Position numbers and translations under genes: made by a program | The notes under the pieces: model-generated | The model's database searches: none | The model's input: the letters and a program-made list of their open reading frames with translations, nothing else | What the model was told of the DNA's origin: nothing | IMG/VR virus record: IMGVR_UViG_3300010163_003659 | Coordinates: 1-64,000 of that record | Direction: 5' to 3' (one strand) | Origin: a virus | Lineage: Duplodnaviria > Caudoviricetes | Length of the DNA: 64,000 nucleotides | Shown here: positions 13,024 through 50,466 of the stretch, in pieces | Numbering within the stretch: the stretch's first letter is position 1 | Layout of the letters: each line of letters opens with the position of its first letter

Positions 13024-13135
13024 TAAAAGGCTGACGGTATCACTGAGCCGAGCGAAAAGTGAGGACAGCCCGGCGGTATCACTGGCATATGAGGGATTGG
13101 AATTTTACATATTACTTGCTGACATTTGACAGCAA

Positions 13136-20612: not shown

Positions 20613-21509
20613 ATGGCGGACAATAAAAAATATTACTATCTGAAACTGAAAGAAGGATTTTTTGAATCAGATGAATTAAAAATCCTGCAGTCTATGCCGG
20701 ATGGATACTTGTATAGTGATATTTTGCTCAAGTTGTATTTAAGGAGCCTCAGTAATGGTGGGCGGTTGATGTATAAAGATGTAATTCCCTATACATCATC
20801 CATTCTTGCAACGTTAACAGGGCATCAGGTAGGTACTGTAGAAAAAGCAGTAGAAACATTAAAACAGTTAGGCCTTATTGAAATTTTGGATAACGGGGCT
20901 ATTTATATGATGGATATTCAAAATTTTATAGGTCAGAGCTCTACTGAAGCAGACAGAAAAAGGGATTACAGAAAGCGGATAGATGCTGAAAAAATGGCTA
21001 TTTGTGATAACTCTTGTGGACAAATGTCCGGACAAACAGTAGGACAAATGTCCAAAGATATAGAGGACAAATCTCCACCAGATATTAGAGATAGAGATAA
21101 GAGTATAGAGAATAGAGATAGAGATAATATAAATACTTTTGCTCAGAGCTCTGGCAACCAGGCCTCTGAACTTCAGGAAGAGCCATTTATCACACTGCAG
21201 CTGAACACAGGGGAAGAGCATCCTGTTTACGACAAGGAGATAAAGGGATGGGAAGAACTGTATCCTGCAGTTGATGTCCGGCAGCAGCTTAGGAGCATGA
21301 AAGGCTGGCTGTTAGCAAATCCGGCTAAACGGAAAACCAGAAGAGGGATTAACCGTTTTATTAATAACTGGCTTTCCAGAAAGCAGGATAGGGGACATGG
21401 AAAATATGATGCAAAGAGCAGTTACCAACAGGTAGCAGGCCAGAGCGGTTATTCACCAGAACTGTTAGAACAGCTGATAAACGAAAGCAGGGGTGATCTA
21501 GGTGGATAA
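20613..21509 (+). CDS. Phage replisome organiser / replication initiator
   Basis: KYYYLKLKEGFF...DGYLYSDILLKLYL N-terminus; C-terminal RFINNWL; internal iterons. Confidence 0.85.
   Translation: MADNKKYYYLKLKEGFFESDELKILQSMPDGYLYSDILLKLYLRSLSNGGRLMYKDVIPYTSSILATLTGHQVGTVEKAVETLKQLGLIEILDNGAIYMMDIQNFIGQSSTEADRKRDYRKRIDAEKMAICDNSCGQMSGQTVGQMSKDIEDKSPPDIRDRDKSIENRDRDNINTFAQSSGNQASELQEEPFITLQLNTGEEHPVYDKEIKGWEELYPAVDVRQQLRSMKGWLLANPAKRKTRRGINRFINNWLSRKQDRGHGKYDAKSSYQQVAGQSGYSPELLEQLINESRGDLGG
21018..21128 (+). repeat. Prophage origin iterons inside the initiator gene
   Basis: GGACAAATGTCC 21018 and 21042, GGACAAACAGTA 21030, GGACAAATCTCC 21065, followed by AGAGAT repeats. Confidence 0.75.
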
Positions 21510-37051: not shown

Positions 37052-38437
37052 ATGGATTATACTTTGATTGTGCTGTTGACCTATGCAGTAACAATGTTTG
37101 GGGTAACAGTATTTATGACGAAAAAAGAGAACAATATCGAGAAATTCTGTGTTGGAAACAGGAATGCCGGCTGGATGGTGTCGGCATTGAGCATAGCTGC
37201 CACATGGATATGGGCGCCAGCTCTGTTCACATCAACTGAGAATGCCTACACAAAGGGTTTTGCAGGGCTCTTTTGGTTTCTGGTACCGAACGTACTGTGT
37301 CTGATATTGTTCATTCCCTTTGCAAAGAAGATAAGGGAAGAAATGCCGGAGGGAATTACATTGTCCGGCTATATGTATGGGAAATATCATTCCAAAGCTG
37401 TGAAAAACGTATATCTGTTCCAACTCGGCGCATTGTCGGCATTATCAACGGGAGTGCAGCTGTTGGCGGGCAGCAAGATATTAAGTATGCTTACCGGGAT
37501 ACCGTTCGCAGCTATGACAATTATTATGGCTGCGATTGCATTTTCATACTCACAGTTCTCCGGGATAAAAGCATCAATACTGACAGATGCGCTCCAGATG
37601 GTATTCATGTTGGCCGCCAGCATCGGTTTTGTTGCTTTTGGTGTAAAGAATGGTGGAGGGTTGGAAACACTGGTTACGGGTTTAGGAGGAGCCGCAGGGG
37701 ATGCCGGATCATTATTCTCAAAGAGAGGATGGGAAATCTTTTTAGGATTCGGACTTCCAACAACGATAGGACTTATCTCAGGACCGTTTGGAGACCAGTG
37801 CTTTTGGCAGAGGGCATTTTGTGTTAGAAAAGACAGAATAGGTAGGGCTTTCTTTGTGGGAGCGCTGCTGTTTGGGATTGTGCCTTTGTCAATGGGTGTG
37901 CTTGGCTTTATCGGTTCTGGCATGGGATATGTCGCAGCGGATACCGGAATAATCAATTTTGAATTGATAAGCACACTATTCCCGGCATGGGCGGTCATCC
38001 CGTTCCTGTTTATGATTGTATCGGGGCTGCTGTCGACGATAGATAGCAACTTGTGTGCAATATCATCCCTCACAACAGACATTTTCAAGGAAAAGACACT
38101 CGGAAAAACAAAGTTCGCTATGATTTTACTGTTGGCTGTTGGAATTACCGTAGCCAACATACCAGGATTGACAGTAACGCACCTGTTCCTGATGTACGGA
38201 ACATTAAGGGCTGCTACCCTGCTCCCGACGATATTTACCCTTAAAGGAATAGAATTGAAACCGAGGGGAATTGTTGCAGGAATTATATCTGCTTTGATTA
38301 TCGGCTTGCCGATATTCGGATATGGAAATATACAGGGAATTGCGATTTATAAGACCGCAGGCAGTCTTTTGACAGTTATTCTTTCTGGAGCGGTGGCTCT
38401 GGCAGTAAGCAGAAAGAGAGGTGTACGGAATGGGTGA
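37052..38437 (+). CDS. Sodium:solute symporter (SSS) family protein
   Basis: About 13 TM segments; ALSIAATWIWA, GDQCFWQR, GLLSTIDS. Confidence 0.85.
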   Translation: MDYTLIVLLTYAVTMFGVTVFMTKKENNIEKFCVGNRNAGWMVSALSIAATWIWAPALFTSTENAYTKGFAGLFWFLVPNVLCLILFIPFAKKIREEMPEGITLSGYMYGKYHSKAVKNVYLFQLGALSALSTGVQLLAGSKILSMLTGIPFAAMTIIMAAIAFSYSQFSGIKASILTDALQMVFMLAASIGFVAFGVKNGGGLETLVTGLGGAAGDAGSLFSKRGWEIFLGFGLPTTIGLISGPFGDQCFWQRAFCVRKDRIGRAFFVGALLFGIVPLSMGVLGFIGSGMGYVAADTGIINFELISTLFPAWAVIPFLFMIVSGLLSTIDSNLCAISSLTTDIFKEKTLGKTKFAMILLLAVGITVANIPGLTVTHLFLMYGTLRAATLLPTIFTLKGIELKPRGIVAGIISALIIGLPIFGYGNIQGIAIYKTAGSLLTVILSGAVALAVSRKRGVRNG

Positions 38438-39215
38438 TGTACTTGGCAGAAAGCAGAGGATACAAAACTCTGATTGGATAGATGCATTTGGGAAAATAGA
38501 ACAGCTGGTGTCGAAGAAGGAACTGGATCAGCTGGTCGAAAAGACAGTAAAAGAGATTAAGAAGAAAACCAAAGGGAAGAAGGCCGCCTATGCATGGAGC
38601 GGTGGAAAGGATTCCCTGGTACTCGGTGAAATCTGCCAGCGGGCAGGGATAACCCCTTGCGTCCTCGTAATCAGTAATTTGGAGTATAAAGCATTTATAG
38701 AATGGGTAGAGGGGCATAAGCCTCCGGAATTGTCCATAATCAACACAGGGCAGGATATAAAATGGTTGGCCGATCATCTGCAGATGCTTTTCCCACAGGA
38801 CAGCAAATTTGCGGCAAGGTGGTTTCAGATTGTACAGCATAGAGGTCAAACAAAATATTACAAGGAGCAGGAACTGGATATGCTGCTGCTTGGAAGGCGG
38901 AGAGCTGACGGAAATTATGTTGGCAAGGGAGATAACATTTACACCAACGGACAGGGGGTAACAAGATACAGTCCCATGTCTGATTGGACGCATGAGCAGG
39001 TGTTGGCATATATCCATTATTATAATCTGGAAATGCCGCCGATTTATGACTGGAAAAACGGTTATCTCTGCGGAACGCATCCATGGCCGGCAAGGCAGTG
39101 GACCGGGAGCGTGGAAAATGCCTGGGCAGAAATTTACGAGATTGACAGCTCCATTGTAACCGAGGCGGCAGAGCATATCCAGAGTGCAAAAGACTTTCTG
39201 GAAAGCCTTAAATAA
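38430..39215 (+). CDS. PAPS-reductase-like PP-loop protein
   Basis: AWSGGKDS, LGRRRADG, SPMSDWT. Confidence 0.8.
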   Translation: MGDVLGRKQRIQNSDWIDAFGKIEQLVSKKELDQLVEKTVKEIKKKTKGKKAAYAWSGGKDSLVLGEICQRAGITPCVLVISNLEYKAFIEWVEGHKPPELSIINTGQDIKWLADHLQMLFPQDSKFAARWFQIVQHRGQTKYYKEQELDMLLLGRRRADGNYVGKGDNIYTNGQGVTRYSPMSDWTHEQVLAYIHYYNLEMPPIYDWKNGYLCGTHPWPARQWTGSVENAWAEIYEIDSSIVTEAAEHIQSAKDFLESLK

Positions 39216-39338
39216 ATACGCTGACATTTGACAGCACTTGCAAGCGGTTGTTTGCAGGCTGTCTTTTTGCTATTTGCAGATAGCACATATATATCATACA
39301 TCAATCGTTCCTCCAATAAATCACAGGAGGATACGAAC

Positions 39339-39965
39339 ATGGAAATAACCACAATGAAACTGGCTGACCTTGTTAAGCCGGAGAAGAATGTCAGAATCCA
39401 TACCGAACAGCAGCTGAAGGAGTTTAGGCGCAGCGTGAAGATGTTCGGACAGATCCGCCCTATTGTTGTTGACGAGAACAACATCATTCTGGCGGGAAAT
39501 GGTCTGTACGATACACTCATTGCTATGGGGAAAGAAACAGCAGATGTATATCGGTATGACAATCTCACTGAAAATCAGAAAAAGAAGCTGATGATAGCAG
39601 ACAACAAGATTTTCAGCCTGGGTATTGAGAACTTGGAAACACTGAACAGCTTTTTGGAGGACCTGCAGGGAGATTTGGATATCCCTGGCTTTGATGAAGA
39701 AATCTTAAAGCAGATGGTCTCCGAGGCTGAGGATATTACAGATAAGCTCTCCGAATATGGAACGCTTGATGATGAAGAGATTCAGAGTATCAAGGAAAAT
39801 GCTGAAAGGAAAGAGCAGCAGATACAAAAGATTGAATCAGGACAGGAGCAGACGCCACAATCGGCGCTTCCGTCACAGCAGGATCCAGAGGGAGGTAATG
39901 AAGAAACCACCGAAGTAAGAAAATTCGTTACCTGTCCTAATTGCGGAGAAAAGATATGGCTATAA
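39339..39965 (+). CDS. ParB/Srx N-terminal domain protein with C-terminal Zn ribbon
   Basis: NVRIH...FGQIRPIVVDENNIILAGNG, IADNK, CPNCG. Confidence 0.8.
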   Translation: MEITTMKLADLVKPEKNVRIHTEQQLKEFRRSVKMFGQIRPIVVDENNIILAGNGLYDTLIAMGKETADVYRYDNLTENQKKKLMIADNKIFSLGIENLETLNSFLEDLQGDLDIPGFDEEILKQMVSEAEDITDKLSEYGTLDDEEIQSIKENAERKEQQIQKIESGQEQTPQSALPSQQDPEGGNEETTEVRKFVTCPNCGEKIWL

Positions 39966-41104
39966 AGAGATGTCCGGCCAGCATTGATGTTGTAGAGGCA
40001 GCAAAAATCAGAATCCGAAATGTATTTCGGAACGGTCTGCCGGTATATATGTCCTTTAGCGGTGGAAAAGACAGTTTGTGCCTGTCGCAGCTCGTAATGA
40101 ATCTGATACAGACAGGAGAAATCAACCCGGCACAGCTGACTGTGCAATTTATTGATGAAGAAGCCATATTCCCATGCATGGATGAAAAGGTAAGGGAATG
40201 GCGAAAAAAATTTATGCTTGTTGGAGCAAAGTTTGAGTGGTTCTGCCTCGAGGTGAAACACTACAACTGCTTTAATGAACTGTCCAACGACGAAACATTC
40301 ATTTGTTGGGACAGATATAAAAAGGATGTTTGGGTAAGACAGCCGCCATCATTCGCAATCCAAAATCACCCGCTGTTGAAACCCCGGACAGATGCGTATC
40401 AAGATTTTCTTCCAAGGGTATGTTCTGATGGGGTAACGATAACTGGGATAAGGACGGCGGAATCGGTTCAAAGATTACAGAATGTGGCAACCATGCTGAA
40501 AGCAGGGAAGACCGCAACGAACAAGCACCAGGTATTTCCTCTGTATGACTGGACCAATAACGATGTGTGGTTGTACCTTCTTCGAGAAAAGGTAGACATA
40601 CCAGAGATTTATCTATTCTTGTGGCAGTCCGGCACAAGAAAGGGGCAGCTTAGGGTATCGCAGTTCTTTTCTATTGATACCGCCAAAAGCCTTGTGAAAA
40701 TGAATGAGTATTATCCTGACCTTATGGAGAGGATAGTTCGCCGGGAGCCTAACGCATATCTCGCCGCTTTATATTGGGATAGTGAAATGTTTGGAAGAAG
40801 CACGACAGCCAGAAAGCAGAATGAGAAAGGGAAAGCAGAGAAAGATTATAAAGCCGCCCTTTTGGAGTTGTTTTCTGATATGGATGGTAATTTCCAAACA
40901 AAACACAAGAGATATGTGGCCGAACGGTATAGGAATTTCTTTATGAGCGTTTCTGCCATTGCAGACAATAAGGACTGCAAAGCTATTTATGAAGGGCTCA
41001 TTTCCGGTGATCCAAAGCTGCGGTCGTTCCGGGCATTGTATCAGCGGATATATGGTAAATATATCACAGAAGCCAAAAAGAAGGAGGGAATGCGAAATGG
41101 ATAG
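39956..41104 (+). CDS. IbrA-like PAPS-reductase/PP-loop protein
   Basis: SFSGGKDS, FIDEE, GIRTAESVQR, PLYDWTNNDVW, LRVSQ. Confidence 0.8.
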   Translation: MAIKRCPASIDVVEAAKIRIRNVFRNGLPVYMSFSGGKDSLCLSQLVMNLIQTGEINPAQLTVQFIDEEAIFPCMDEKVREWRKKFMLVGAKFEWFCLEVKHYNCFNELSNDETFICWDRYKKDVWVRQPPSFAIQNHPLLKPRTDAYQDFLPRVCSDGVTITGIRTAESVQRLQNVATMLKAGKTATNKHQVFPLYDWTNNDVWLYLLREKVDIPEIYLFLWQSGTRKGQLRVSQFFSIDTAKSLVKMNEYYPDLMERIVRREPNAYLAALYWDSEMFGRSTTARKQNEKGKAEKDYKAALLELFSDMDGNFQTKHKRYVAERYRNFFMSVSAIADNKDCKAIYEGLISGDPKLRSFRALYQRIYGKYITEAKKKEGMRNG

Positions 41105-41618
41105 TAAGATGATAAGCCCTCTTGATACTCTGCAATGGGTAGACAGGGGCATGGTAAAACCAAATGATTATAACCCGAACAAAGTATCGAAACAAAATCT
41201 GGAACTGCTGAAGCAGTCCATTTTAACCAACGGATGGACATTGCCGATTGTGGTGAGGCCGGATTTTACGATTATTGACGGATTCCACCGTTGGACCGTT
41301 GCAGGAGAAGAGCCTCTGGTTTCCATGTTGGAAGGGAAGGTTCCGGTTGTTATTGTAGAACATAAAGACAAAGCAGGAAATATTTACGGTACTGTAACCC
41401 ATAACAGGGCAAGAGGCACACATTTGCTAGAGCCTATGAAAGCAATCGTTAAGGAATTGATGAGCGAAGGTAAGACGGTGGAGGAAATCGGAAAGCAGCT
41501 CGGCATGAGACCGGAAGAAATCTTCCGTCTTTCTGAGTTTTCAAAAGAGGACTTCCTGAAAATGATGATTAAGCCGAATGAGGGCTATTCAAAAGCGGAG
41601 TTCATAACGAAGATTTAA
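41097..41618 (+). CDS. IbrB-like ParB protein
   Basis: PNDYNPNKV...GWTLPIV...IIDGFHR...TVTHNRARG. Confidence 0.85.
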   Translation: MDSKMISPLDTLQWVDRGMVKPNDYNPNKVSKQNLELLKQSILTNGWTLPIVVRPDFTIIDGFHRWTVAGEEPLVSMLEGKVPVVIVEHKDKAGNIYGTVTHNRARGTHLLEPMKAIVKELMSEGKTVEEIGKQLGMRPEEIFRLSEFSKEDFLKMMIKPNEGYSKAEFITKI

Positions 41619-41720: not shown

Positions 41721-42551
41721 ATGCCGAGGGCGCCGAGCGAAAAAATGATTGAAGCTGAAAAGCTGTTTAATGATGGAATGGCAATGGTGGAAATCGCAAA
41801 GAAACTGGGAGTTTCTGATGGTACTGTCCGTAGCTGGAAGAACAGATACGGATGGGCTGACAAGTCAAAAAAAAACAAACGCAACGTTGCAAAAAAAGAC
41901 GGTAAGAAAACTGCAACGTTGCAAAAGAAAAAGAAGGGCGGGCAGCTGGGAAATCAAAATTCTAAGGGAGCATCTAAAGGCAAGGGTAACCCAAAGCCAG
42001 TACCGCCACCCGATAGAACAAAACATGGTGGATATGTTCCTGTGTTCATGGATGCCCTCGATGAAGATGAGCAGGAACTCGTTGCAACGATTCCAGAAGA
42101 TACAGAACGGCAGCTCATGGAGCAAATACAGCTTTTTTCCATTCGGGAGCGCAGAATATTAAAAGCAATCAATAAATACCGGGAGCAAAAGGGAGACGTT
42201 GCGGTTGCTGATGTTACCAGATTTGAGGATAAGAGAATCTTCAAGGATAAGGAGGAAGAGGCAGAATACAATAGGCGCCAGAAGAAAAAAGTTGATAATG
42301 AAGAGATTCTTCCGGGTAAGTCCTACAGCATACAGACGCATACATCAAATAAGGATATGATAATAGCGAGGCTGGAACAGGAGCTTTCGACTGTTCAAAG
42401 CAAAAAGACAAAGGCTATTGAAGCATTGTCGAAATATCGCTTAGAAAAAGCAAAGTTGGAAAGTGAAAGTGCTGGAAATGATGCTGTTGACGATTGGATT
42501 GCAGCGGTTCTTGAGGAAGATGAGGGAGAGGATGTGAGTGGTGATGAATAA
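41721..42551 (+). CDS. terS: Terminase small subunit
   Basis: N-terminal HTH (EIAKKLGVSDGTVRSWKNRYGW), KGGQLGNQN, KHGGY; directly upstream of terL. Confidence 0.85.
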   Translation: MPRAPSEKMIEAEKLFNDGMAMVEIAKKLGVSDGTVRSWKNRYGWADKSKKNKRNVAKKDGKKTATLQKKKKGGQLGNQNSKGASKGKGNPKPVPPPDRTKHGGYVPVFMDALDEDEQELVATIPEDTERQLMEQIQLFSIRERRILKAINKYREQKGDVAVADVTRFEDKRIFKDKEEEAEYNRRQKKKVDNEEILPGKSYSIQTHTSNKDMIIARLEQELSTVQSKKTKAIEALSKYRLEKAKLESESAGNDAVDDWIAAVLEEDEGEDVSGDE

Positions 42552-42920
42552 GAACTCACGAGCGTTAAGGAAACGGTTCTTCCAGAAGAGAATTCCGGTA
42601 TATAGGAAAAATCCTGTCATATTCGCAAGGGAGGTATTGTTATTTGAGCCGGATGAATGGCAAATGGCGGCATTGATGGACTTGGCAGAGAATCCGAAAG
42701 TTGCGATTAAATCTGGGCAAGGTGTTGGAAAAACAGGTTTAGAAGCTGTGGCACTGCTGTGGTTTTTATGCTGCCACCCATATCCGAGGATTGTAGCGAC
42801 TGCACCAACCAAACAGCAGCTACACGATGTGTTGTGGTCCGAAGTCAGCAAATGGATGAGCAAGTCTCCTTTGCTCTCAGAAATCCTCAAGTGGACTAAG
42901 ACATATATCTACATGGTTGG
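42538..42920 (+). CDS. terL: Terminase large subunit, 5' part (interrupted)
   Basis: PDEWQ, Walker A SGQGVGKT, ATAPTKQQL; terL similarity stops at the att repeat. Confidence 0.9.
42900..42920 (+). repeat. attL of inserted element
   Basis: GACATATATCTACATGGTTGG; 19/21 identical to 63340-63360. Confidence 0.9.
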
Positions 42921-43000
42921 TGCGTCATTATTTAACTTTTCGTATCATCTGATATATGGCGGTATTGTTAAAGGGTGTATTTATATCAAATTATATTTTA

Positions 43001-43059
43001 TGGTGTCAATTAGTTTGTAATATGGTGTCAGAATTGGTGTACAGAAAAAAGTGGTGTCA
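43001..43059 (+). promoter_or_regulatory. Integrase arm-type sites (left)
   Basis: TGGTGTCA at 43001, 43023, 43052 and TGGTGTA at 43035; same motif at 63253 and 63265. Confidence 0.7.
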
Positions 43060-43937: not shown

Positions 43938-44079
43938 CCTAGGTGGATTTTTCCACCTAGGCAGGAGGTAAACTAGGTGGATTTTTCCACCTACCCAGAA
44001 GAAAATGGGAAAAAGGTAGGTGGAAATTTCCACCCAGTGTCTGAATATTTTGATACTTACCTAGGTGGAAATTTCCACC
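43938..44079. repeat. Four palindromic iterons TAGGTGGA(T/A)(T/A)TTTCCACC
   Basis: 43938-43961 (perfect 10-bp arms), 43973, 44017, 44060; AT-rich tract follows. Confidence 0.85.
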
Positions 44080-44200
44080 ACTTTATATAAAGTTTACCAT
44101 ATACTTATAAATTTATTGGAAATTAGAAATGGCTGATATGGGCATGCGGATATTGCTTTCAAACAGGAATAGGGATTTGTTATAGAAAGGAAATGAAATT

Positions 44201-44305
44201 GGATATCTGTCCGTTGTTTGCTGTGACATTTGTACGACGTTTGTTATGACATTTGTCCGGACATTTGTACATCATTTGTTGTGACATTTGTCCAGACAAA
44301 TGTCC
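44201..44305. repeat. ~12-bp GACATTTGTCC array matching helper origin iterons
   Basis: Units at 44201, 44224, 44236, 44247, 44259, 44282, 44294; 44252-44268 is the exact reverse complement of 21020-21036. Confidence 0.85.
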
Positions 44306-44819: not shown

Positions 44820-45674
44820 ATGTCGAATGAAAAGATTGTTGAGCAGATACAGCAGGGCATTAATGTGACAGCCAATCAGGAAAAGCTCTGGGAGCAAAAT
44901 AAGGGTTTTGTGGTACAGTGTATCAGAAAGTATGTAGGCGGGTGTGATGGGCAGGATTTTAAGGATTTCCTACAGGAAGGTTTTATAGGCTTGATAGATG
45001 CAGCCCGCCTATTTGATGCCGGGCATGGGGTGAAATTTTTGACTTATGCAGAGTACAGTATACGGAGAGCCGTATACCGTTATAATGGCATGAATACCTA
45101 TATGGTGTGTGTCCCGGAGTATCTTAAGGCGAGAATGAGGAAGTTGGCCGCATTCAGGCAGAAATATCGGGAAGAACACCACAGGAACCCGGAACCGGAA
45201 GAAATACTGAACGCTTTACACATTTCTTACCGTTCCCTCTGCCATCTGGAGAAAACCATAATGAACATAAGCACCAGGAGTCTTGATGAGTACATATCGG
45301 AGGATGGGAATACCAAACTGGCCGACCTGCTCTCAACAGATGAAAAGATTGACGAGCTGGCCGGAGGAAGTGAGTACCAAAGGGAGCTGCATGAGGAACT
45401 GGAAGCGGCACTTTCCATTTTGGATAATAAAACTGCCATGATGATACGGTGTGCATATTACCAGGGGAACAATTACACCAAGACCGCTGAAATATTTGGG
45501 TGCAGCAGGCAGGCGGTTGATGAACGCATAAAGAAAGGCTTTTATAAGATACTCCATTCAAGGCATAGGAAAAGGCTGGAAAGCTTCATGTGGGAGGGAT
45601 ACCATGTAGATTCCCGGCGCCTGAAGGACTATGTGGAGGAAATTGACAATATAAGCAGTGATTTTTTGTTATAA
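44820..45674 (+). CDS. Sigma-70 family RNA polymerase sigma factor
   Basis: DFLQEGFIGLIDAARLFD...KFLTYAEYSIR (region 2), SLDE (region 3), TAEIFGCSRQAV (region 4). Confidence 0.85.
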   Translation: MSNEKIVEQIQQGINVTANQEKLWEQNKGFVVQCIRKYVGGCDGQDFKDFLQEGFIGLIDAARLFDAGHGVKFLTYAEYSIRRAVYRYNGMNTYMVCVPEYLKARMRKLAAFRQKYREEHHRNPEPEEILNALHISYRSLCHLEKTIMNISTRSLDEYISEDGNTKLADLLSTDEKIDELAGGSEYQRELHEELEAALSILDNKTAMMIRCAYYQGNNYTKTAEIFGCSRQAVDERIKKGFYKILHSRHRKRLESFMWEGYHVDSRRLKDYVEEIDNISSDFLL

Positions 45675-45679
45675 GGCAG

Positions 45680-46501
45680 GTGGATGGGCATATGCCATAT
45701 TTTTATGATTATTTTGCTAAGGAATACAGGGACAGGCATAAGGAGGGGCTGTTTCCTGCCCCTGCTGCCATGTTCCGGGATATTAGGCAGGATGTGCAGG
45801 GATGCAGGCGGGTCTTAAAAAGTGCTTTTACCGGCTATCGTGAGGGCAGGAATACAGAAGTATTGAAAATGTTGTTTATGGAATACCGGGAATATATTGC
45901 AGGGCTGAATGATATGCAGGCAAAAGACAGATGTAATGCTTTTGCTTACCAGTATATGGTAGAGACATATGCTGGCAGCAGGGCGATAGCCACAAAGCTG
46001 GGGGTTGTGAAGGATACTGTATGGAATTACATCAACAGATGCATTGATGAAATGCTGATACTCTGCATGGGAATACCGGCAGCAGTTGAAGGTCCTGAAG
46101 GCAAAGAAAAGATTGTCCGGATGCTGGCAGGGGGTTGCAGGCTTCTACGGAATATGGCAGGGGAATATGTCCTGCTGCTCTTCCCGGGCAGGAGGCAGAA
46201 CCGGGCAGTAGAATGGGGCAGAGAGATAACAGGAGATGTTCTGCAGCAATTTGCGGGGGCTGTGGAGGCATACCTAGACTATTGCAGGGATGGACACACC
46301 CGCATTGATACTGACATCCGGAAGGCGTGGGTTCTGGAAAGGTGCATTGACGGAATTAGCCCTGCTGCCATTGCTGAAGAATATGGATGTTGTGAAAGCA
46401 CAATCTATGCAGATATTCGGGAGAATGATAGACGGCTTGCGGCCATGCTGTTTGATATGGAAAGAGATACTGCAAGCAACGGAAAAGTAAGGATAAATTG
46501 A
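45680..46501 (+). CDS. Tandem two-domain homologue of helper late regulator
   Basis: Two HTH-ending modules, each resembling the C-terminal half of 36264-36854. Confidence 0.55.
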   Translation: MDGHMPYFYDYFAKEYRDRHKEGLFPAPAAMFRDIRQDVQGCRRVLKSAFTGYREGRNTEVLKMLFMEYREYIAGLNDMQAKDRCNAFAYQYMVETYAGSRAIATKLGVVKDTVWNYINRCIDEMLILCMGIPAAVEGPEGKEKIVRMLAGGCRLLRNMAGEYVLLLFPGRRQNRAVEWGREITGDVLQQFAGAVEAYLDYCRDGHTRIDTDIRKAWVLERCIDGISPAAIAEEYGCCESTIYADIRENDRRLAAMLFDMERDTASNGKVRIN

Positions 46502-47584: not shown

Positions 47585-48220
47585 ATGATGGGAGCATTTG
47601 GTAAAGATTTGTTAACCCAACACGAGATGATAACCTTGGCATCAATTGTACAGGTTGGAGATGCTACTTACTTTGATTTGCTAGAGGCAGAAAGACCGAT
47701 GTTTGCGCATCCGTATTTCACTGATTTGAAGGGAAGAGTACGGACGAAACTTGTACAGATGCAGTGTGAGATGGAGCACTATGACGGCAAGTTCCCATTT
47801 GCGTTTTCTGAACGGGAATTTTGCTATGGGCATAAAGTGCCAGAATTAAGGAATAAGTATATGATAATCCATTTTGCACAAAGTAATTCGCCGACTTCCC
47901 TTCCAAGCAAGGCTGATTACAAATGTGAATTGACATTTAACAATGATTCGTTGTACCGTCAAATGAGATTTGACTTTTTAGGAGAACAAAAATATGTTAA
48001 AGAGCCATATTATGGCATTTTGGTTTTCGGAGGCCGGCAGGGAAAGACATTTTGCCGTTTACAGTTTCCGGAGCCGGGATACAGGGCTATTGCAGATTAC
48101 ATTGATATACCTATGATGAGTTTGGTGCCTGAAAAGGAGGAAACAAAGAAATTTGAAAGGAAAAAGGCGATACTGAGGGAGGAATTTCTAGCTCATAATG
48201 TCAGGGAAGAAGTATTATGA
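47585..48220 (+). CDS. Hypothetical protein; putative toxin of RosmerTA-like pair
   Basis: Translationally coupled (ATGA) to XRE-ImmA gene; own promoter TTGACA 47526. Confidence 0.45.
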   Translation: MMGAFGKDLLTQHEMITLASIVQVGDATYFDLLEAERPMFAHPYFTDLKGRVRTKLVQMQCEMEHYDGKFPFAFSEREFCYGHKVPELRNKYMIIHFAQSNSPTSLPSKADYKCELTFNNDSLYRQMRFDFLGEQKYVKEPYYGILVFGGRQGKTFCRLQFPEPGYRAIADYIDIPMMSLVPEKEETKKFERKKAILREEFLAHNVREEVL

Positions 48221-49374: not shown

Positions 49375-49473
49375 GATGTAATTTGTTTGGAAGTTGCAAT
49401 AAAGGCAAACGGCATAGAAATTAAAGTTATAGGGAATAATATATTGATTAATAGAGGCAGCACTTTCAATGTG

Positions 49474-49504
49474 AAGCCGGGCACTGCAAGTGTCTGGCTT
49501 TTTT
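49474..49504 (+). terminator. Intrinsic terminator
   Basis: AAGCCGGGCAC-TGCAA-GTGTCTGGCTT followed by T run. Confidence 0.7.
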
Positions 49505-49568
49505 GCGTACAGGGGGGGTGTCTGCAAGGGAAAGCCTACAGGGCAGACAGCGTTTTTTGTGTGTGAGG

Positions 49569-49853
49569 AAAGCGAACGTTCGCTTAATTACAAAACAATG
49601 GCACATGGCGGTAAGGATACTGTAAACCTGCTGTTTATGGTATCCCGCCCATATTGCTGTGCCTTTTTAAAAAGCGAACGTTCGGTTTGCCCCATACAGA
49701 AAAACGGGCGGGGATTTACCGCAGCGTTGCATTTTCCGCAGAAGGAAAACGAATCACAGGTGGAGCGGTTTGCCAGTGCAAGAAGGTGGCGCAGGTGGAA
49801 CGGCCGAAAGCTCCCCACGGAAGCAAAAACAAATGATTGCAACGTTGCAAAAG
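49569..49853. repeat. Palindrome cluster incl. 16-bp match to helper terS
   Basis: AAAGCGAACGTTCG at 49569 and 49671; GCAGCGTTGCA 49721; TGCAACGTTGCAAAAG 49838-49853 = 41912-41927. Confidence 0.75.
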
Positions 49854-50466
49854 CCTGAGGGGAGTCTGTGGCACACGCAGAGGCTTCATTTTGCCGCTCT
49901 AATGGCCGGAATGATAAGAATTGCCCTTCAGCATTGCAAAGGGGCTGTATGGGCAAAATAGGCGGTGCGTGGGGTGGGGCTGCTGCCGTGCAATATTGTG
50001 GCAGGGGATAGGAGGGGCAACAGGAAGAATTTCATGGGGACAGGATGCACAGCGTCAAGGTGTGGGCGGGATAGGATACCATCTGCCCCATCATAGGCGA
50101 GGGGAGTGTATTGAAAGGGTTTGGGATAGCCTGGGGATGCCAGCGCTGCAGTGAAGGGATCCTGCTGCCGTCAGAGACATAACCAGAGACAGAGACATAG
50201 GCATAACCGTATGGCCTTCAGATTGCCCGAAATTCGGTTGAAATTATTTTAGACAATAATTTTATCGTTGAGAGAATAAAATGAGCATGGCGGCCAAAAT
50301 AGAAGGCGAACAGAACTATATCAAACTTGAAGCAGTTAGGACAACAGGTTCTGCTTATAGGAACATAGGAATTTTTTAGTTGCGTATGGGACTAACTAAT
50401 ACTATAATAGTGGTAGATAACAAATGACAAGGGAGGACAAAAGATGGAAATACGGAGGTGGAATTT

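Follow-up and report, generated by a model that had tools for sequence, protein, structure and literature searches.

Why does a mobile element that lacks a small terminase carry, in its non-coding DNA, a palindrome that belongs to the small-terminase gene of the phage in which it resides? The question is raised by a 95.9-kb IMG/VR provirus record, a gut-bacterial prophage, whose first 64 kb (64,000 nucleotides, here called the window) were analysed. The palindrome, GCAACGTTGC, occurs at only three places in the whole record, two of them in the helper phage's terS and the third in the element.

The helper terS (41721-42551, plus strand; Pfam PF10668/PF06056; PHROG 1889, E = 1.5e-53) encodes a protein with an N-terminal HTH, a basic linker and a C-terminal domain. 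The adjoining large-terminase gene is split: a 5' fragment of terL (42538-43020, plus strand; 89% identity to residues 1-126 of an intact orthologue) is broken off at the attL core (42908-42917), and a 3' part (63353-64000, plus strand; 68% identity to residues 124-467 of the intact orthologue) extends past the window to position 64459 of the record. TerL gave no Pfam terminase match, and its nearest cultured relatives, ~50% identical, belong to the phiCD27 clade, in which termini were not detected. Between the two parts lies an integrative element of ~20.4 kb (42918-63347, plus strand), flanked by the 10-bp core TCTACATGGT, present as a direct repeat at 42908 and 63348, and encoding a tyrosine integrase just inside its right junction (61975-63183, plus strand; Pfam PF00589, E = 1.5e-31). 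Because terL is split, the core is repeated and the integrase lies at the right junction, the palindrome array can be placed in a terL-embedded element that is co-oriented with terL. Insertion in a late gene, co-orientation and a direct repeat that would restore the gene on excision are thus all found, as in helper-embedded satellites.

The element encodes a sigma-like protein, an HTH_23 protein, an antirepressor, an HTH-M78 protein, a Uma2 nuclease, defence-type TIR and STAND-TPR proteins (STAND NTPases), and a DnaD-like initiator (58520-59374, minus strand); AlpA is absent from its annotated ORFs. Searches of its ORFs by Pfam, PHROGs and tblastn found no homologue of TerS or TerL, several small ORFs being without assignment, in agreement with the sequence-only reading, which had described a satellite with no TerS of its own; by these homology searches it has the makeup of a satellite that depends on the helper's terminase. 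No excised circular or separately packaged form was present in the collections searched, and no close relatives were found in IMG/VR through its HTH-M78 protein or integrase. In the related composites G001 (L050), L051, L052 and L139, compared with window positions 63337-63438, ~85-100 nt of terL past the att core stay joined to the 5' part of terL; these elements may be inserted slightly further into terL, or may have a terL-like left end. Directly upstream of terS (38421-41618) are two PAPS-reductase-domain genes and a ParB_N gene, which are kept in relatives and which we take to resemble an IbrA/IbrB-type pair.

The first terS copy of the palindrome (41881-41890), a proposed TerS recognition site, is read N-V-A, and the second, which starts at 41913, 32 bp from the first, is read with its flank (41912-41927) as A-T-L-Q, so that one word is used in two reading frames. 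The copies in the element fall in a non-coding region between the HTH-M78 gene and the TIR gene (49375-50457; G+C up to 55%), which was correctly called non-coding beforehand, since it holds no ORF with a Pfam match and no Rfam match. It contains four sites. Two A-type palindromes, both AAAGCGAACGTTCG, lie at 49569-49585 (core CGAACGTTCG at 49573; related elements have a B site, i.e. a copy of the first palindrome, in this place) and at 49671-49687 (core at 49675, with the next B site following 46 nt downstream). They are followed by a degenerate B site with one mismatch, GCAGCGTTGC (49721-49730), the positional counterpart of perfect sites in related elements, and by a perfect B site (49838-49853), the last of the array, whose flank, ending in AAAAG, is like that of terS copy 2; these 16 nt match 41912-41927 exactly. 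Re-checking confirmed the positions previously given for both palindrome families, the 16-bp match and the 49721 copy. The second palindrome is found in the 95.9-kb record only at 49569 and 49671. After the last site comes a conserved block (49854-49965, plus strand) that includes CTGTGGCACAC and a small terminator-like hairpin (49865-49881). The four sites match the related composite G001 position by position, with spacings of 102, 46 and 118 against 103, 45 and 139. Between the conserved block and the TIR gene (49966-50457) are ~500 nt of G-rich non-coding DNA (G+C up to 55%), absent as conserved sequence in relatives that also have TIR-NLR genes.

That two places in 64 kb have one exact 16-mer in common is weak evidence and not significant by itself: outside the paralogous NLR genes, five exact 16-mer pairs were observed in the window, against 1.9 expected (range 0-4) in order-2 Markov simulations. 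Two other exact matches of 17 nt (13118-13134 with 39220-39236, and 2972-2988 with 47860-47876) join unrelated parts of the window and may be due to chance, ~2 being expected. The significance of the match comes instead from the count of the 10-bp palindrome in the window (three observed, 0.02 expected) and, above all, from the comparative data. In five host genomes totalling 24.8 Mb, GCAACGTTGC occurs 29 times, and 25 of these occurrences are a terS pair (copies 32-33 bp apart) or an element array lying 5.5-8 kb downstream of the terS pair. The palindrome is therefore not common genome-wide, which removes the condition that the sequence-only reading had itself named as refuting.

Conservation within terS was examined in 34 loci with relatives of the window's TerS, obtained from IMG/VR. 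All 30 relatives with a TerS identity of at least 70% carry GCAACGTTGC twice in the same place, 29-32 bp apart, while in three divergent relatives (51-62% identity) the homologous place holds two copies of GGAGCGTTCC, a word that occurs only there. Among 21 distinct terS sequences (TerS 70-99% identical), the palindromes are invariant, with 6/6 third-codon positions unchanged inside them against 15/133 (11%) overall, and they are the only invariant runs of at least 8 nt in the first 420 nt of the gene. This pattern indicates that selection on the terS palindromes acts at the level of DNA and not of protein. GCAACGTTGC occurs exactly twice, both copies in terS, in each of 27 records of related phages, five of them complete genomes (60-98 kb). 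The site is thus inside terS and unique in the genome, uniqueness being found for two other site types as well, and the constraint is on DNA rather than protein. Phages without the element keep the sites strictly, and so a phage-encoded function needs the palindromes.

Twenty further copies of the terL-embedded element, from Lachnospiraceae genomes and metagenomes, carry two to six palindrome copies each. Three are in IMG/VR relatives of the helper, with 6, 3 and 2 (plus one degenerate) extra copies of GCAACGTTGC in non-coding DNA; the other 17, from species-representative genomes and metagenomes of Lachnospiraceae and allies, were found through the palindrome itself and form a biased sample, the first four (the window's included) having been found through terS and being unbiased in this respect. 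Hosts include Eubacterium plexicaudatum ASF492, Acetatifactor, Hungatella and Bacterium D16-36. Together the 21 copies, with the window's, hold 58 first-palindrome sites in non-coding arrays, in which the distance between sites is 135-161 bp or, in close pairs, 34-42 bp; the window's own element contributes one perfect and one degenerate copy only. The first site of the array is preceded by AAACAAAT, as in the upstream flank of terS copy 1, and the last is followed by AAAAG, as downstream of terS copy 2, and then by the conserved block with CTGTGGCACAC. No terS-like reading frame was found around the arrays, and no homologues of the window's non-coding region were found in cultured phages. The sites have stayed perfect, whereas the intervening DNA has fallen to 70-77% identity or shows no detectable similarity. 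The related satellites thus share a short identity with the helper's putative signal region that is conserved amid diverging DNA, as in a mimic. In the Acetatifactor genome G083 (contig 3, 157779-177769; L218, L181), two arrays lie 13 kb apart downstream of one terS pair, which suggests two tandem elements in one terL.

The identity of these sites with the terS palindrome, their conservation, their exclusivity and their genomic context are matters of observation. From them we infer, with a probability of roughly 60%, that the paired GCAACGTTGC in terS is the site recognised by the helper TerS to start packaging (as a pac site, or as the part of a cos-type site that is recognised), and that the TerS-less element has copied it so that the helper packages the element; the inference covers TerS binding and cleavage as well as the element's packaging. 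A borrowed terminase site accords with a satellite that is lodged in terL and lacks a terminase. On induction the element would excise, with terL restored, and would then replicate; the array (49569-49853), in which the palindrome has A-rich flanks resembling those in terS, would recruit the helper TerS and TerL, and element DNA would enter helper capsids. Since several element sites would compete with the helper's two, packaging of the element would probably be at the helper's expense. The idea of a packaging-signal mimic for the helper terminase, already put forward by the sequence-only reading, withstood every computational test run.

The element resembles its helper in a second kind of cis site. 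The helper replisome-organiser gene (PF09681) contains three iterons (21018-21076), and the element has at 44201-44305 about six iteron-like copies of GGACAAATGTCC that are similar to them. In some related elements the iterons directly adjoin the palindrome array.

The position of the array also bears on a regulatory function, in which TerS or another palindrome-binding protein would act upstream of a cargo promoter, letting the element sense the helper's late phase and switch its downstream defence and cargo genes on or off, with no part in packaging. The arrays always lie between conserved regulatory genes and variable cargo, upstream of the cargo, and several relatives have a -35/-10-like pair after the last site (from an alignment read by eye); in G001, again by eye, a close pair is followed by a promoter-like pair with a ribosome-binding site. 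The fixed distance of A-like motifs from B sites points to a composite nucleoprotein site. Matches to promoters are weak, however, and poor in the window's own copy, and TerS proteins are not known as transcription factors. A regulatory role gives no clear reason why an operator should copy both flanks of the terS site, and the adjoining of array and iterons in some relatives is more like an ori-pac module. We regard such a role as unlikely.

The number of sites, up to six in related elements against the helper's two, would also suit a decoy that titrates the helper TerS and disturbs helper packaging, the element itself staying unpackaged, and so would the presence of defence-type genes (TIR, STAND NTPases) in the element. 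But DNA bound by TerS would normally also be cut and packaged by TerS-TerL, and the integrase, the initiator-like gene and the iterons are what is expected of a transferable element. A pure decoy is, in our estimate, distinctly improbable.

We give equally little credence to binding of the palindromes by a protein other than TerS, the candidates being the helper's ParB/IbrB-like protein and two kinds of element protein, sigma-like and HTH_23. The genes for the latter two (44820-46501) are conserved better than any others in the element, the HTH of a 273-aa protein matches the same PHROG 664 HTH region as TerS, and the ParB_N gene is directly upstream of terS. Against the element's proteins stand the strict retention of the sites in element-free phages and recognition helices that differ from the TerS helix. 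The neighbouring ParB/IbrB-like protein was rejected as the binder because ParB_N is encoded in only five of the 43 records with analogous terS palindromes and is missing from the other 38; terS is the one gene that always accompanies the palindromes.

That the element sites are a functionless relic or a chance likeness, such as a decayed captured terS fragment, is scarcely credible, since the chance-level 16-mer match and the degenerate site of the window's element are outweighed by 58 sites in 21 elements that are perfect amid diverging DNA, by the genome-wide exclusivity of the palindrome and by arrays that have no terS-like reading frame around them.

Other identities of the region were considered and rejected. 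A structured RNA is not supported, RNAalifold on nine elements giving -5.5 kcal/mol with a covariation term of ~0. Rfam returned nothing at its gathering thresholds, and at a relaxed E-value gave only miRNA-precursor matches far below the gathering scores, one of them spurious, to an imperfect 120-nt hairpin (49569-49688, z = -4.5) whose base is formed by the two AAAGCGAACGTTCG copies. This hairpin folds well, but its base is not conserved, the two sites differing in relatives. An ORF at 49490-49858 (122 aa) has no family match and a frame that is not conserved in relatives. A cre/LacI-type operator was set aside by inspection, the half-site being one base too short.

The second palindrome was followed through IMG/VR by a scan for two copies of CGAACGTTCG 12-42 nt apart, which gave 83 stretches, and 79 newly fetched loci were examined. 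At 55 of these a homologue of the window's TerS is encoded, and the pair comes immediately behind its HTH. This bears out the suggestion made in the sequence-only reading that the word reads S-E-R-S in other clostridial TerS proteins. Forty-six distinct TerS have two or three copies, the first starting 6-17 residues after the motif GT[IV]RxWK, and the word is read ERS 75 times and NVR 27 times. In these 46, the spacings are only 19-24, 29-35 and 38-42 bp, i.e. whole helical turns, and in 24 of them the spacing is not a multiple of three. In 43 records CGAACGTTCG is confined to terS. A search of IMG/VR for CGAACGTTCG arrays at spacings of 80-110 or 125-155 bp found only unrelated tandem repeats and one unrelated contig of 14 kb (L087, 1647-4814), which has 13 copies with conserved flanks in 3.2 kb of poorly coding viral DNA, in a neighbourhood where no protein family was recognised.

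It had also been suggested that the second palindrome may be the equivalent signal for another helper. It occupies the corresponding position in 46 other distinct TerS genes. It is not clearly an independent signal: an A-like motif, GA[AG]CG[CT]T[CT]G, precedes a B site by 38 or 45 nt in 12 of the 21 elements, and 23 of the 26 such motifs in 164 kb are placed in this way. In one element subfamily the second palindrome thus belongs to a composite repeat unit, and the idea of a second helper is weakened. The element-bearing phages all share one terS site type, and no phage with a CGARCGYTCG-type terS pair is resident in the five host genomes.

Paired words also occur in cultured Clostridia phages of the same TerS family, just after the HTH-coding part of terS, and are candidate recognition sites: GGTGCACC twice, 21 bp apart, in phiC2 (L284) and phiCD27 (L286), GGCGCACC twice in phiCD38-2 (L285), and CGAGCGTTCG with its reverse complement in Acutalibacter phage Fontainebleau (L283). 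A pac site has been attributed to phiCD38-2 (PMC5127024), which has a TerS of the family, while PhageTermVirome classed Fontainebleau, whose TerS falls in the broader family, as 5' cos (PMC10197239); because of this call, 'pac' may be the wrong word for the terS site. We put forward tentatively, and with more doubt than confidence, the wider possibility that in a large Firmicutes TerS family (phages of C. difficile, Listeria, Enterococcus and gut Clostridia) the packaging recognition site is marked by a lineage-specific palindrome, present in two to four helically phased copies just behind the HTH-coding segment, and that the terL-embedded Lachnospiraceae satellites, which interleave GCAACGTTGC and CGARCGTTCG, could be packaged by helpers of two TerS specificities.

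Several known systems share parts of this arrangement. Pac sites embedded in small-terminase genes, a subject of reviews such as PMC9611059, are those of P22 (gene 3), SPP1 (gene 1 region) and Sf6. The terS palindromes are like these in being a unique putative recognition sequence within terS that is conserved beyond coding needs, and differ in consisting of two to four short perfect palindromes, helically phased and directly after the HTH-coding segment, and in being a word that is lineage-specific across a large Firmicutes TerS family. Satellites that carry cos sites include P4, with the cos of P2, and SaPIbov5, with the cos of its helper. Like the present element, P4 and SaPIbov5 bear the helper's packaging signal (here putative) without having terminase specificity of their own, whereas their signals are cos sites cut to cohesive ends and the putative signal of the present element may be of the pac or the cos type. 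Cos-carrying satellites of this kind have been cited as a precedent (PMC11417361) for the mimicry described next.

PLE, the Vibrio cholerae satellite of phage ICP1, has a 14-bp mimic of the pac site that is needed for transduction (Boyd and Seed 2024, PMC11417361) and is present in all PLEs near the satellite origin (PMC11417361). Packaging-signal mimicry by satellites is thus already known, and the element, as read here, is a variant of that mechanism: in both, a short non-coding stretch is identical to part of the helper's (here putative) packaging signal. The differences are several. PLE is integrated in the host chromosome and not in its helper, and also encodes a TerL inhibitor and packaging specifiers; the ICP1 pac site is intergenic and its TerS unidentified, whereas the palindrome described here is inside terS; and the palindrome, with its proposed role in packaging, is repeated two to six times in the satellites.

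Helper-embedded PICIs (HE-PICIs) lie in late genes of lambdoid prophages (Tommasini, Mageeney and Williams 2023, PMC10111431). The element is like them a satellite inside a helper late gene, co-oriented with it, with the gene completed only on excision and a tyrosine integrase at one end. HE-PICIs reside in lambdoid prophages of Gram-negative bacteria, carry genes of the AlpA and Bro-N types and have integrases of one particular clade; the element belongs to Lachnospiraceae phages, has sigma-like, HTH, antirepressor and defence genes, and its integrase is assigned by Pfam to the tyrosine type. Among the papers searched, none has the palindromic words in a phage context, the exact words returning only papers on CpG oligonucleotides.

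The comparative evidence is unusually clean and would yield a testable pac rule for a large TerS family. If the proposed reading is correct, the rule is a simple one, paired palindromes directly after the HTH-coding segment, and would allow prediction of pac from sequence for the whole family, C. difficile phages included. It would likewise extend helper-embedded satellites, described in Gram-negative lambdoid phages, to gut Firmicutes, and would present a terminase-less satellite that lives on borrowed cis sites (origin-like iterons and packaging palindromes) while splitting the helper's terL. It would further predict what DNA transduction is likely to carry in Lachnospiraceae of the mouse and human gut, TIR/STAND cargo defence genes included.

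A further set of repeats lies near the left end of the element. At 43939-44080, in a non-coding stretch upstream of the element's iterons and sigma-like gene, there are four palindromes of 16-20 bp with the form GGTGGA-N6-TCCACC, which comprise two pairs of exact repeats and look like operators.
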